Below are positions 1,137 to 3,839 of a DNA stretch of 39,078 nucleotides, in pieces. Position 1 is the stretch's first letter, and the number at the start of each line of letters is the position of its first letter. The stretch is taken from the sequence record DRR378314_1401; one strand, given 5' to 3'. The notes beneath the pieces are model-generated. The model worked only from the letters and a program-made list of their open reading frames with translations, was not told the DNA's origin and searched no databases. Made by a program: the position numbers and the translations under genes.

Positions 1137-1170
1137 AAAGGCGCCAGCGCGATTAACTGGCGCCTTTTTA
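1137..1170 (+). terminator. Intrinsic terminator of rho
   Basis: AAAGGCGCCAG-9 nt loop-CTGGCGCCTTT followed by TTATTT. Confidence 0.85.
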
Positions 1171-1218: not shown

Positions 1219-1239
1219 TATAATTACATATGTTATTAC
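1219..1239 (+). promoter_or_regulatory. -10 box (TATAAT) overlapping a putative operator of the abrB/doc-like operon
   Basis: TATAAT at 1219-1224. Imperfect palindrome TAATTACATATGTTATTA (16/18) at 1221-1238. No good -35 seen. Confidence 0.6.
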
Positions 1240-1272
1240 TAATTATGTCCTAGGTTTAGAGGAATAGTGAGC

Positions 1273-1518
1273 ATGGTGAAAAAGGATCTCAAACCGTTCG
1301 AGACCAAACTTCGCAAAACCGGAAGCGCGGCCGGGGTGACCATCCCCGCAGAATTTCTGCGCCATCTTGGATATGAGATGGGCGATACATTGCGGGTCGC
1401 AGTTGACGGTGACGGTCTGGCTATTCGGAAAATCGATCCGACCCTTGATGATTTCATGGCCCTTTATGACCAGGTGGCTGTTCATTATCAGCCGGCCCTG
1501 AAACGCCTGTTCCGCTAA
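1273..1518 (+). CDS. AbrB/MazE/SpoVT-family DNA-binding antitoxin
   Basis: KLRKTGSAAGVTIPAEFLRHLGYEMGDTL swapped-hairpin signature. C-terminal helix ...HYQPALKRL is typical of AbrB partners of Doc. RBS GAGGA at 1259-1263 favours ATG 1273 over GTG 1267. Confidence 0.88.
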   Translation: MVKKDLKPFETKLRKTGSAAGVTIPAEFLRHLGYEMGDTLRVAVDGDGLAIRKIDPTLDDFMALYDQVAVHYQPALKRLFR

Positions 1519-1525
1519 GGTGGTC

Positions 1526-1936
1526 ATGATGCATTTACCAACCCGTTCTGTTATTCGTGAAGTCTACCGCCGGCAACTTCGTCAGTTTGGATCGGAATCC
1601 GATCAGAAGCTAGAACTGGACGATGTCAAAATCGGCGCTGCTCTCGCCTGGCCAAGAATGATGGTGACGGCAAATAAGTCGGTGGATCTGTTTGAAGTTG
1701 TGACTTCCCTGTTTACAGGCGTGCTGACCGAACAACCGGCGGCAAAGGGAAACGCGTCTTTGGCGCTGGCCTTGGCCATGATCACGCTGCGCCGAAATGG
1801 ATTGATGCTGGATATCTCAAATGAGGAGGTGGCTGAGTTTTTCAATGATCTCGCGACCGAGCAACATAGCGAACAGTCCCTGAATCAGTTTTTTCAAAAA
1901 AATGCCATTCCCTTTGATTTTACATCGACTATTTAA
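1526..1936 (+). CDS. Doc (death-on-curing/Fic-fold) family protein with degenerate catalytic loop
   Basis: Collinear with Doc along its length (AALAWP ~ SALARP; DLFEVV; LRRNG ~ FLxxNG), but HPFxDGNKR reads QPAAKGNAS. Lies directly behind the antitoxin. Start is uncertain (1520/1526/1529). Confidence 0.7.
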   Translation: MMHLPTRSVIREVYRRQLRQFGSESDQKLELDDVKIGAALAWPRMMVTANKSVDLFEVVTSLFTGVLTEQPAAKGNASLALALAMITLRRNGLMLDISNEEVAEFFNDLATEQHSEQSLNQFFQKNAIPFDFTSTI

Positions 1937-1995
1937 CAAAAAGATCAGAGCAACAGTATCTGCTAAAATTTGCGATATTTAGGCTGAGAATTTTA

Positions 1996-2029
1996 GTAAC
2001 AATTTATGTAATAATTTGTGTAATTACAT
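1996..2029 (-). repeat. Copy 2 of the 12-bp-periodic operator-like element
   Basis: Minus strand TAATTACACAAA TTATTACATAAA TTGTTAC. The first 19 nt match 1221-1239 at 16/19. Confidence 0.55.
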
Positions 2030-2072
2030 GACTTAAGTAACTGAAATATAACCTTTCATATAATTTGTAATA

Positions 2073-2633
2073 TTATTCATCCGGATCAATGACCAAAAGA
2101 TCCGGCCAGCGGGATTTCCAGTCTTTTGTCCTTATCCTATCTTTGAATATTGCTCTTTTCCAAGGAAAATAGGGGTTGGGCCGAAGAATGCCTTTTAACA
2201 GATCATCGGTTCCAAAAGGCGCCGTTAGACGGAGCTCATCCTGCTGCAGCCGGGCGGCAACAGCCGTTGCCGTTTCCGGCCAATATTCAAGTGCAGTCTC
2301 TAGATCTGCATAGGCAGGATCCGAATTTTTCAGATGCATCCGGGCCTGGTTATGGACAGACCAGTTTTCGGTTGGATGCATTTTTATAAGTTGCGCTTCA
2401 ATTTTTCGATCCTGGAGGGGATCAAGATTTTCTGCGTTAAAATAGATCACGTCGATATCGGCATTCAACCCGGTAGGGGCTGACCTGCCAAACAGGTGAT
2501 CCCAAACTGCATTTCGGATTGCACCAGCACTGATCCAGCATTTCGCAAGGGTAATGGCAGACGCTGCTTTTAAAAGGGGGGCTAGCGTGGGATGGGCTTG
2601 AATAAACGCTTTCAACTCATCTTCGGTTTTCAT
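2073..2633 (-). CDS. Nucleotidyltransferase family protein (DUF925 / NTP_transf_6-like)
   Basis: WISAGAIRNAVWD...DIDVIYF (Pol-beta-type DxD), WSVHNQARMH, WPETATAVAAR, APFGTDDL, KDWKSRWP. Confidence 0.85.
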   Translation of the reverse strand: MKTEDELKAFIQAHPTLAPLLKAASAITLAKCWISAGAIRNAVWDHLFGRSAPTGLNADIDVIYFNAENLDPLQDRKIEAQLIKMHPTENWSVHNQARMHLKNSDPAYADLETALEYWPETATAVAARLQQDELRLTAPFGTDDLLKGILRPNPYFPWKRAIFKDRIRTKDWKSRWPDLLVIDPDE

Positions 2634-2745
2634 GCTACCATCTTTTGAGAAGGTAAGAGTGAGGACAGATAGCTGCGCCTAAATCCTTGATTTAGAGGCA
2701 TAAATAGAGGTGCTAAAAATTTATCCAAAATTGAAGTCTAATCTC

Positions 2746-2779
2746 AGTAAAATTTGCGTTATTATTTATGTTATTACAT
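2746..2779 (-). repeat. Copy 3 of the 12-bp-periodic operator-like element, upstream of the nucleotidyltransferase
   Basis: Minus strand TAATAACATAAA TAATAACGCAAA TTTTACT. The first 19 nt match 1221-1239 at 14/19. Confidence 0.55.
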
Positions 2780-2803
2780 ATAACTAAAATATTGAAATTT
2801 ATG

Positions 2804-2841
2804 AAAAAAAGGCACCCTTTGTAATTTAAAAGAGTGCCTTT
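2804..2841 (-). terminator. Intrinsic terminator of qor
   Basis: Minus strand AAAGGCACTCTTT-loop-AAAGGGTGCC followed by T7. Confidence 0.85.
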
Positions 2842-2864: not shown

Positions 2865-3839
2865 TTAAAGCGTGAAAATGGTCGACCCGGTTGTTTTCCG
2901 GGCTTCCAGATCTTCATGAGCTTTAGCGGCTTCTGACAGATGGTAGCGCTGTCCGATATTGATTTTGACCGTTCCGTCACCGACCAGTTTAATCAGATCT
3001 GCCGCTGATTTTTCAAGATCAGGGCGGTCTGCATTATAGGTCATCAAGGTTGGACGGGTCACATATAAAGATCCTTTGGCGGCCAGTGTTCCCAGATCCA
3101 GATTATTGACAGGTCCGGTCGCATTTCCAAAAGACACCATCAGACCCCGGGGCATCAAACAATCGAGGGAGCTTTCAAATGTGTCTTTGCCAATACTGTC
3201 ATACACAACAGGGACGCCTTTCCCCTCTGTGATGTCCATAACCCGTTTTTGGAAGTCTTCTGTGCGGTAGTTGATGGTGTGATCACAGCCATGGGCCTTG
3301 GCCAGCTCTGCTTTTTCCTCAGATCCGACGGTTCCGATAACGGTCGCCCCGATATGCTTTGCCCATTGGCAGGCAATTAGGCCCACACCCCCTGCAGCGG
3401 CATGAAACAGGATTGTATCGCCTTGTTTCACGTGAAACGTTCGCTGCAACAGATATTCAACTGTCATACCCTGAAGCATCATGGCAGCGGCGGTTTCATC
3501 GCTGATTGTATCGGGGATTTTGACCAGGCCTTCCTCCGGCATGACCCGTTCTTCGGCATAAGCTCCGATCGGCCGGCCGGCATAGGCAACCCGGTCACCA
3601 ACTTTTACATATTGAACATTTTCGCCAATTTCCTCAATAATTCCAACAGCTTCCATACCTGGACTGTTGGGTAGGGGTGCCGGATAAAGACCCGTGCGGA
3701 AATAGACATCGATATAGTTGAGGCCGACAGCAGAATGCTTGATCCGAACTTCGCCTGGCCCGGGCTTCCCAACTTGGACATCCTCCCATTTGAGGACCTC
3801 AGGTCCGCCGGGTTCTTTAAATGTAATGGCTTTTGTCAT
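2865..3839 (-). CDS. qor: NADPH:quinone oxidoreductase (zeta-crystallin-like MDR)
   Basis: GLNYIDVYFRTGLYP, HAAAGGVGLIACQWAK, GSLYVTRPTL, LEARKTTGS. Confidence 0.93.
   Translation of the reverse strand: MTKAITFKEPGGPEVLKWEDVQVGKPGPGEVRIKHSAVGLNYIDVYFRTGLYPAPLPNSPGMEAVGIIEEIGENVQYVKVGDRVAYAGRPIGAYAEERVMPEEGLVKIPDTISDETAAAMMLQGMTVEYLLQRTFHVKQGDTILFHAAAGGVGLIACQWAKHIGATVIGTVGSEEKAELAKAHGCDHTINYRTEDFQKRVMDITEGKGVPVVYDSIGKDTFESSLDCLMPRGLMVSFGNATGPVNNLDLGTLAAKGSLYVTRPTLMTYNADRPDLEKSAADLIKLVGDGTVKINIGQRYHLSEAAKAHEDLEARKTTGSTIFTL
3424..3439. promoter_or_regulatory. parS: parS site inside qor
   Basis: TGTTTCACGTGAAACG, 15/16 match to the TGTTTCACGTGAAACA consensus. Confidence 0.8.

Follow-up and report, generated by a model that had tools for sequence, protein, structure and literature searches.

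In the 39,078-nucleotide stretch DRR378314_1401 (the window), a gene pair encoding an AbrB/MazE-type antitoxin homolog (abrB) and a Doc-fold protein that lacks the Doc catalytic motif (pseudo-Doc, gene pdoc) is accompanied by three copies of one operator-like site: O1 at the presumed promoter of the pair, O2 behind the pair and O3 upstream of a nucleotidyltransferase gene. The sites are conserved, specific to this locus, tied to the module formed by the two genes, and phased; the toxin is catalytically dead yet conserved. Our favoured reading, to which we assign a probability of about 0.6, is that the three sites are operators of the AbrB homolog with pseudo-Doc as co-repressor, that O1 mediates autorepression, that O1 and O2 are joined by a DNA loop and that O3 was copied together with the nucleotidyltransferase gene. 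The original prediction, which was made from the sequence of the window, had proposed a toxin-antitoxin (TA) pair repurposed as a transcription factor acting through three such elements, and this idea holds for the most part. As an operator the element is conserved and specific to the locus, and the second operator is selected and phased; the binder, the loop and a control of the nucleotidyltransferase gene we infer.

[quoted passage not shown] Pseudo-Doc would hold the C-terminal tail of the antitoxin and probably serve as a co-repressor bridging the dimers, similar to P1 Doc for Phd. Binding at O1, which overlaps the operon promoter, would result in autorepression, and O2 would cooperate with O1 by forming with it a DNA loop, about 750-800 bp long, around the whole operon. 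O3 would put the region upstream of the nucleotidyltransferase gene under the same protein.

The features on which this reading is built are:

1219..1224, + strand: TATAAT, by reading a candidate -10 element of the abrB-pdoc promoter, overlapping the left box of O1
1220..1239, + strand: O1, ATAATTAC-ATAT-GTTATTAC, near-palindromic, two boxes, at the operon promoter; 28.0/30.1 bits (1220-1240)
1273..1518, + strand: abrB, AbrB/MazE-type antitoxin homolog of 81 amino acids (PF04014, E 1.8e-8), the putative box binder
1526..1936, + strand: pdoc, pseudo-Doc of 136 amino acids, Doc fold, catalytic motif changed to EQPAAKGNAS
1996..2027, + strand: O2, three boxes, GTAACAAT-TTAT-GTAATAAT-TTGT-GTAATTAC, first box 60 nt past the pdoc stop codon; 31.6 bits (2008) and 16.7 bits (1996)
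2758..2777, + strand: O3, GTTATTAT-TTAT-GTTATTAC, duplicate of O2, 125 nt upstream of the nucleotidyltransferase start codon; 24.2 bits

A bipartite site with boxes 12 bp apart

The three strings reported in the original prediction are present where it had placed them, and all are copies of one 20-bp bipartite site composed of two 8-bp pseudo-palindromic GTWATWAC boxes with their centres 12 bp apart. The 12-bp period of the earlier description thus stands, with its unit TWATWAC to be lengthened to the 8-bp box GTWATWAC. The box GTAATTAC is a perfect palindrome, and the boxes occur in 12-bp pairs in the 41 sites that were compiled from the window and its relatives. Palindromic half-sites of this kind suit a dimeric antitoxin, as in the autoregulatory operators of TA systems. 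Copy 1 had been assigned to the + strand and copies 2 and 3 to the - strand. Since the boxes are near-palindromic, however, all three align best on the + strand as (R)TWATWAY-N4-GTWATTAC, i.e. as direct repeats. The boxes of O2 start at 1996, 2008 and 2020, one 12-bp unit having been gained in the window relative to the two boxes of its relatives.

A position matrix trained on 18 sites from eight related loci, with the window sequence excluded, assigns 24-32 bits to the three sites and 6.5 bits to the next best match in the 39 kb. Over both strands the window contains 13 instances of the string TWATWAC, nine of them inside 1221-2776, and the three occurrences of the dimer TWATWAC-N5-TWATWAC are exclusively the three sites. 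The original prediction had likewise seen no such array in the other intergenic regions. The repeats might nevertheless be chance products of AT-rich DNA, or else boxes of another global regulator such as a member of the Fur/Zur family or a nucleoid protein; this alternative as a whole we consider extremely improbable. With regard to chance, 1000 dinucleotide-preserving shuffles of three AT-rich spacers reached a maximum of 23.4 bits (15 bits in 12/1000), and ten further AT-rich stretches of the window (1270 nt in total) gave at most 4.9 bits. In this matrix scan the observed sites score above both, so the motif withstands the comparison with shuffled AT-rich DNA that the original prediction had asked for.

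O1 overlaps the TATAAT at 1219-1224, as the original prediction had noticed, and so lies at the predicted promoter of its own operon, the position of an autoregulatory operator in type II TA systems. In nine aligned genomes it is the sole conserved block of the rho-abrB spacer besides the terminator. O1 and O2 are conserved blocks within spacers that are otherwise unalignable, even in comparison with the nearest relative (L028), at saturated synonymous sites (synonymous divergence, dS, 1.4-1.8). Across the genomes O2 scores 27-35 bits and O1 25-32 bits, O2 thus being preserved at least to the same degree. Their forms differ: O1 is the palindrome GTAATAAC-NTAT-GTTATTAC, and O2 consists of ATTTTA followed by GTAATAAT-GTAT-GTAATTAC and AT.

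Most O2-type copies have on their right, at a distance of 10-25 nt, a conserved block ATTGA(A/T)(A/T)T (window 2791-2798; L001, L002, L004, L005, L009, L010, L050 and L055). On the - strand this block often resembles WATCAANNNNTTR, which we take to be the consensus of the integration host factor. Together with the left flank AAATTTTAG the right block delimits a conserved unit of about 55-60 bp.

Occurrence and history of the locus

Related loci were collected by an alignment-based search of genomes and metagenomes and from all 39 genomes of the order; a query with a single protein retrieved none. The set comprises 23 distinct loci including the window (L008 duplicates L003 and is left out of all counts; the Doc segments of L032 and L043 were taken from tblastn), and statements on sites across whole genomes are drawn from the genomes of the relatives. 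Among 5.8 billion clusters pseudo-Doc has seven close homologs, of which the two bearing source names belong to Sneathiella. All 23 loci are situated between rho and a quinone oxidoreductase-like gene, here called qor, and the locus is vertically inherited in Sneathiella-like bacteria. The surrounding features in the window are:

up to 1111, + strand: 3' part of rho, at the start of the window
1137..1167, + strand: terminator hairpin of rho with a T run after it (I12, a perfect inverted repeat of 11 bp), kept in all aligned relatives; left edge of the module
2073..2633, - strand: nucleotidyltransferase gene (PF06042, Pfam E 2.9e-52), inserted between O2 and O3
2808..2841, - strand: terminator hairpin of qor flanked on either side by A/T runs, in a terminator scan 13 pairs and then a T run; right edge of the module
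2865-3839, - strand: qor, beyond the right edge of the module

A hairpin at the place of the qor terminator was also found in relatives, and an O6-methylguanine methyltransferase gene follows qor, likewise on the - strand. Between the abrB stop codon and the pdoc ATG at 1526 there is a gap of 7 nt, with other in-frame starts at 1520 and 1523 (window 1516-1528); this tight spacing suggests a translational coupling of the two genes. Rfam yielded nothing in 1100-2900 at E values up to 1, and PADLOC had no match for the AbrB homolog, pseudo-Doc, the nucleotidyltransferase or the YtoQ-family protein dealt with below.

The loci fall into two groups. In the seven genomes with intact Doc (L040-L046; motif HPF(A/T)DGNKR) the gene pair is co-oriented with qor and converges on rho. 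This group has one site, directly past the qor stop codon, in the order TTGACA, box, N4, box, AT. In six of the seven genomes the layout is readable (the contig of the seventh stops inside the site): the boxes fill the spacer after a TTGACA, with TACATN at the -10 position. That copy 1 belongs to the promoter of the operon, as originally proposed, is thus supported by relatives in which the same site lies between a perfect TTGACA and the -10 position. The 16 pseudo-Doc genomes, including that of the window, have the pair in the opposite orientation: abrB and pdoc run in the direction of rho, and all three converge on qor. O1 is located upstream of abrB in 16/16 of them, and an ortholog of O2, with two boxes in the relatives, lies 48-94 nt past the pdoc stop codon in 15/16. 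The extra copies outside the TA promoter that the original prediction had pointed out are accordingly real, and they are limited to the lineage that has lost the catalytic residues.

In a tree of rho and qor the seven intact-Doc genomes form one clade with a support of 0.991. The intact Doc presumably represents the ancestral state, since a decayed motif is unlikely to be rebuilt.

Two irregular loci were noticed. L010 (3475-4400) carries a tandem duplication of about 780 bp with a second O2, a second terminator, a 33-amino-acid 3' fragment of qor and a broken second pdoc. In the metagenome-assembled genome L001 (3720-3750) no ATG, GTG or TTG stands in frame ahead of the conserved N-terminus of the abrB ortholog, and CTG aligns as its first codon. 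Either an unusual start or a fault in assembly might account for this.

Pseudo-Doc retains the fold and has lost the catalytic motif

The predicted model of pseudo-Doc (mean predicted local distance difference test score, pLDDT, 84.7) has the Doc/Fic fold. Its best match in Foldseek was P1 Doc (3dd7_A) with a template modelling (TM) score of 0.76 by model length and 0.83 by target length, the P1 Doc chains as a set giving 0.74-0.77 and 0.81-0.84, respectively. Pfam, in which the Fic/Doc kinases are PF02661, returned no family match, and with 35.3 bits TIGR01550 stayed below its curated cutoff of 38.65. A profile search against 1.84 billion representatives linked pseudo-Doc to ordinary Doc proteins with HPFxDGNKR. 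The catalytic motif of Doc/Fic proteins is given in the accessible part of the source as HxFx(D/E)GN(G/K)R with an essential His (PMC4454073). In the window it reads EQ-PAAKGNAS: the His has been lost by deletion, and other residues stand in place of F, D, K and R. The label "pseudo-Doc" in the original prediction was therefore well chosen.

The catalytic His is deleted in 16/16 pseudo-Doc genomes, where the remaining motif has decayed to a varying degree, whereas HPFxDGNKR is intact in 7/7 sister genomes. The pdoc frame is open in all 16. Its ratio of nonsynonymous to synonymous divergence (dN/dS) is 0.03-0.11, the least saturated pair (dS 0.23) showing 0.03. By this pattern of substitution pseudo-Doc is under purifying selection, a conserved pseudo-enzyme and not a decaying one.

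A 1:1 complex prediction placed residues 55-81 of the AbrB homolog, its C-terminal tail, on pseudo-Doc. The complex score was 0.87 and the best of three controls 0.08; the runs agreed in at least 97% of the contacts, with a partner pLDDT of at least 86. The mark applied here is reached by 51 of 78 solved complexes and by 2 of 108 mismatched pairs, and passing it may echo the solved Phd-Doc complexes, i.e. likeness or memory.

The AbrB homolog as presumed binder of the boxes

With 34.6 bits the AbrB homolog exceeds the cutoff of PF04014 (24.7 bits; E 1.8e-8) and by this profile possesses the N-terminal swapped-hairpin domain; its match to TIGR02609 "doc_partner" (E 5.5e-10) stays under the cutoff. 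The only solved antitoxin relative found was PDB 9vzc from E. faecalis (E 0.0091 with the profile). Residues 6-42 are mostly identical in nine orthologs, as are the boxes, with pseudo-Doc falling to 37% identity. Apart from the AbrB homolog, the locus encodes no DNA-binding protein.

Furthermore, the site is fused to the abrB promoter in the intact-Doc group and in an unlinked paralogous AbrB-Doc pair found in one genome (L048). A second paralog (L047) has a different sequence in the putative DNA-binding loop and, after TTGACA, a different 20-bp palindrome, GTAGT...ACTAC. Both unlinked pairs retain HPFxDGNKR, and in both TTGACA abuts a 20-bp palindrome (L048 1170-1230, L047 1180-1230).

The site also co-occurs with the module. 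Among the 39 genomes of the order exact sites were found in 19/20 with the module and in 2/19 without it, and a control with the reversed pattern gave 24 hits across all 39 genomes. In the one module genome without an exact site the contig ends in the site. G021, counted among the 20, has a distant paralogous module only, with the site on another contig. Taking together the promoter-fused site, the co-occurrence with the module, the parallel conservation of boxes and domain and the lack of another DNA-binding protein in the locus, the AbrB homolog (1273-1518) is presumed to bind the boxes.

The same counts bear on a different global regulator as the binder. Such a regulator would fit the AT-rich boxes, whose GTTAT/ATAAC words recall what we take to be Zur-type boxes, and some of the neighbouring genes are metal-related (a CobW-type GTPase gene and, in L001, an open reading frame, ORF, for a His-rich secreted protein). 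However, there are 1-5 exact sites per genome, almost all at one locus, and none in 17/19 module-free genomes, where global regulators would be expected. The reading as Zur boxes was rejected for the rarity of the sites and for the module-free genomes without one.

O2 as a candidate auxiliary operator

The distance between O1 and O2, from start to start, is 736-802 bp in 15 genomes, and the distances cluster on a ladder. Phasing at 10.45 bp amounts to R = 0.652, the best of all periods from 8 to 13 bp; at 3 bp R is 0.000. Random distance sets equalled or exceeded the observed value in 14/5000 cases for periods of 10-11 bp and in 21/2000 for 8-13 bp; with one genome of each of three close pairs dropped, the 12 remaining genomes gave 49/5000 and 78/2000. 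The component distances (O1 to the stop codon, stop codon to O2) have singly R values of 0.43-0.49, and re-pairing them among the genomes equalled or exceeded the observed phasing in 33/5000 (15 genomes) and 77/5000 (12 genomes) cases.

Phasing at the helical repeat is a classical mark of two sites held together by a protein. O2 combines the traits of an auxiliary operator, namely the same sequence, a looping distance and, with moderate statistical strength, helical phasing. On account of the phased distances we favour O2 as an auxiliary operator that would loop to O1, with moderate support. The suggestion of a DNA loop in the original prediction fits well with these data, as the copy behind the operon is kept in 15/16 genomes in phase with copy 1, the loop being read from the spacing. 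By analogy with the two Phd-binding faces of Doc, as described in the accessible part of the source (PMC4803016), the repressor assembly would be able to bridge O1 and O2.

O3 and the insertion of the nucleotidyltransferase gene

The nucleotidyltransferase gene lies between two O2-type copies in the window, in its nearest relative L028 and in L001, and is absent from this place in the 13 other pseudo-Doc genomes. The left flank of O2 equals the left flank of the single copy in the genomes without the gene, and the right flank of O3 equals their right flank. Because the outer flanks match both flanks of the single ancestral copy, O3 is best described as a duplicate of O2 that was made at the insertion of the gene, with about 45-70 bp duplicated including the operator. 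The three genomes group with the gene-free L002 (clade support 0.946-0.993), for which one gain and then one loss of the gene would be the simplest history.

In all three genomes the O3-type copy is located 125-126 nt upstream of the nucleotidyltransferase start codon, a spacing that would permit a control of this gene. The link to the nucleotidyltransferase gene that the original prediction had drawn is, however, positional and not a conserved one: the insertion occurs in 3/16 genomes, and homologs in two genomes have no site. Between the nucleotidyltransferase gene and O2 of L001 (4657-5013, + strand), at roughly 200 nt from O2, there is an ORF of 118 amino acids that is His-rich and has a signal-peptide-like start; it matches no Pfam family and is missing from the window and from L028.

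The insertion raises the question whether the copies are scars or sites of recombination, similar to Xer/dif sites or integron cassettes, that bound cassettes and do not act in regulation at O2 and O3. The layout O1-[abrB-pdoc]-O2-[nucleotidyltransferase]-O3, the inversion of the cassette between the two genome groups and the flanks of O2 and O3, which bear the signature of an insertion with duplication, would agree with such a role; so would nine bases, ATAATGTAT, that resemble what we take to be the centre of E. coli dif. We nevertheless judge it quite improbable. The architecture of the site is 8-4-8, with extra boxes in 12-bp phase, and differs from the 11-6-11 that we take as the dif consensus; no conserved XerD-type arm was seen by eye. 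There are two to five copies per genome and none in 17/19 module-free genomes, and the locus contains no recombinase gene. Moreover, a scar would have decayed, whereas O2 still scores 27-35 bits despite unalignable spacers and saturated synonymous sites. The dif/Xer reading was rejected on architecture, arm and copy number.

Copies away from the locus

Genomes carry 1-5 exact sites, almost all at the rho-qor locus, and each of the six scorable intact-Doc genomes has exactly one. Exact intergenic copies off the locus with O2-type flanks were found in pseudo-Doc genomes only:

G005: upstream of a YtoQ-family gene
G007 and G034, at orthologous places: after a secreted-protein gene, adjoining a TauE-family gene
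G025, two copies: around a CobW-type GTPase gene
G031: between a DUF2938 gene and a patatin-like gene

This distribution looks like a binding site that is starting to spread and not like a settled regulon. In L055 a CobW-type GTPase gene together with two unannotated ORFs lies between near-identical O2-type copies at 1455 and 4472 (3 kb apart), again in the pattern of a cassette between copies.

Other hits were discarded. One-mismatch hits off the locus in five genomes were rejected as a regulon, their number equalling that of the reversed-pattern control and 5/9 lying inside ORFs. The exact off-locus hits in G010 and G020 are inside ORFs as well, one of them in a peptide repeat. The hit in the module-free genome G022 lies in a hairpin loop and was treated as chance. 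In L054 (2040-2100), from a genome in which the module was not found, an exact site occupies the loop of a hairpin rich in GC (GGCGAC...GTCGC) that is flanked by convergent genes.

The O2-type copies might also be orphan promoter-operator units derived from the ancestral promoter-operator and ordinarily repressed by AbrB/pseudo-Doc. They would then give rise to transcripts antisense to pdoc (O2), of the nucleotidyltransferase gene (O3) and, in one relative, of the YtoQ-family gene. In favour of this, the site is built into a promoter (TTGACA, site, AT) in the intact-Doc relatives and in a paralog, and in both independent cases the closely following gene lies on the same side and strand at a distance of 125-150 nt, namely the nucleotidyltransferase gene (window, L001 and L028, one event) and the YtoQ-family gene (L006). 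By eye, most copies also have a TAAAAT beside the left box on the - strand. The -35 position of the O2-type copies, however, is occupied by ATTTTA instead of TTGACA, the -35 candidates on the - strand match at 2-3 of six positions (by eye), and O3 of the window has no TAAAAT. Candidates for -35 and -10 elements read by hand at O2 and O3 on either strand are too weak to fix a direction. Several copies are flanked by the converging ends of two genes and have no gene to transcribe, and the helical phasing with O1 would be left unexplained. Taking these points together, orphan promoters seem unlikely.

Weight of the evidence

Several observations weigh against the reading of O1, O2 and O3 as operators of AbrB and pseudo-Doc. 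A consensus scan of 1100-2900 detected no sigma-70-type promoter and no full pair of -35 and -10 elements, so that the O1 promoter stays a prediction, as would one at O2 or O3. The phasing is of moderate statistical strength (about 0.003-0.015) in a set of related genomes. O2 is absent from one pseudo-Doc genome (L036) and from 7/7 intact-Doc genomes and must therefore be dispensable. One and the same branch carries the change to pseudo-Doc, the cassette inversion and the appearance of O2, whose association thus amounts to a single event. The genes adjoining the extra copies share no function. Homologs of the nucleotidyltransferase elsewhere in G004 and G005 have no site, nor have the YtoQ orthologs in G001-G003, the best score being at most 13.4 bits in either case; a conserved regulon was rejected for this reason, and the mini-regulon of the original prediction was not upheld. 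Finally, the accessible part of the report on the only AbrB-like Phd-Doc system so far characterised, that of E. faecalis (PDB 9vzc), describes an antitoxin that binds a single palindrome near the -10 element and a TA complex that does not bind DNA (PMC13034048), so that co-repression by a Doc partner is not universal.

A wider interpretation, which we put forward tentatively as a possibility below even odds, is that a Doc-type TA pair has been tamed and serves as a two-protein transcription factor. After losing its kinase site, the toxin would have kept its interface with the antitoxin, a second, helically phased operator behind the operon would have been acquired whose loop would enclose the pair's own genes, and a module of about 60 bp would have been copied elsewhere, to the nucleotidyltransferase gene here and to YtoQ-family, CobW-type and other genes in relatives, which would make it a regulon at birth.

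The function and long-term fate of chromosomal TA pairs is an old question. The locus offers a natural series of before and after at one chromosomal position within one order, with an active-looking Doc and a single promoter operator on one side and a dead, conserved Doc, a second phased operator and scattered copies on the other. The domestication of a TA pair into a regulator thereby becomes directly testable.

Comparison with known systems

Auxiliary operators with DNA looping are known from O1 and O2 of lac and from OL and OR of lambda. As in these systems, a second copy of the operator is situated hundreds of bp away and is helically phased. Unlike them, the presumed regulator is derived from a TA pair, and the loop, which is read from the spacing, would enclose the two genes of its own regulator.

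The TA systems compared in the following are taken from the accessible parts of their reports. At the P1 operator Doc bridges two Phd dimers as a co-repressor, in conditional cooperativity (PMC4803016). The locus resembles P1 Phd/Doc in the gene order, with a Doc-fold partner downstream of a DNA-binding antitoxin, in the two adjacent palindromic sites at the promoter and in the tail of the antitoxin lying on Doc, which is predicted here. It differs in its antitoxin, which is of the AbrB/MazE type and not of the Phd/YefM fold, in the loss of the catalytic His and most of the motif of the partner, in the second operator behind the operon and in the vertical inheritance of the module at one chromosomal locus.

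Composites of mazE and doc are known, such as tasA-tasB of B. thuringiensis pGI1 (PMC1626090), which likewise combines an AbrB/MazE-type antitoxin with a Doc-family protein. In E. coli TasB was toxic; the protein described here has no catalytic motif left, and both NCBIfam scores (TIGR02609 and TIGR01550) stay under their cutoffs. A full-text literature search, with subscription journals outside its coverage, found in the accessible text neither a catalytically dead Doc partner nor an operator behind a TA operon, and no TA work on Sneathiella.

With the Phd-Doc system of E. faecalis the locus shares an AbrB/MazE/MraZ-like antitoxin and a palindromic operator near the -10 element. That system has one 10-bp palindrome and an active Doc; the locus described here has up to three sites, each composed of two or three boxes.

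In YefM-YoeB paired palindromes, 12 bp from centre to centre, cover the promoter, and MqsA represses other promoters (PMC3920265). The 12-bp pairing of short palindromes at the promoter is the same here, and an antitoxin acting outside its own operon is already known there. The folds and box sequences are different, however, the toxins of those systems are active, and an operator behind the operon is not part of their description in the accessible text. If the reading proposed here is correct, a loop-forming architecture would be added to the known modes of transcriptional control by TA systems.

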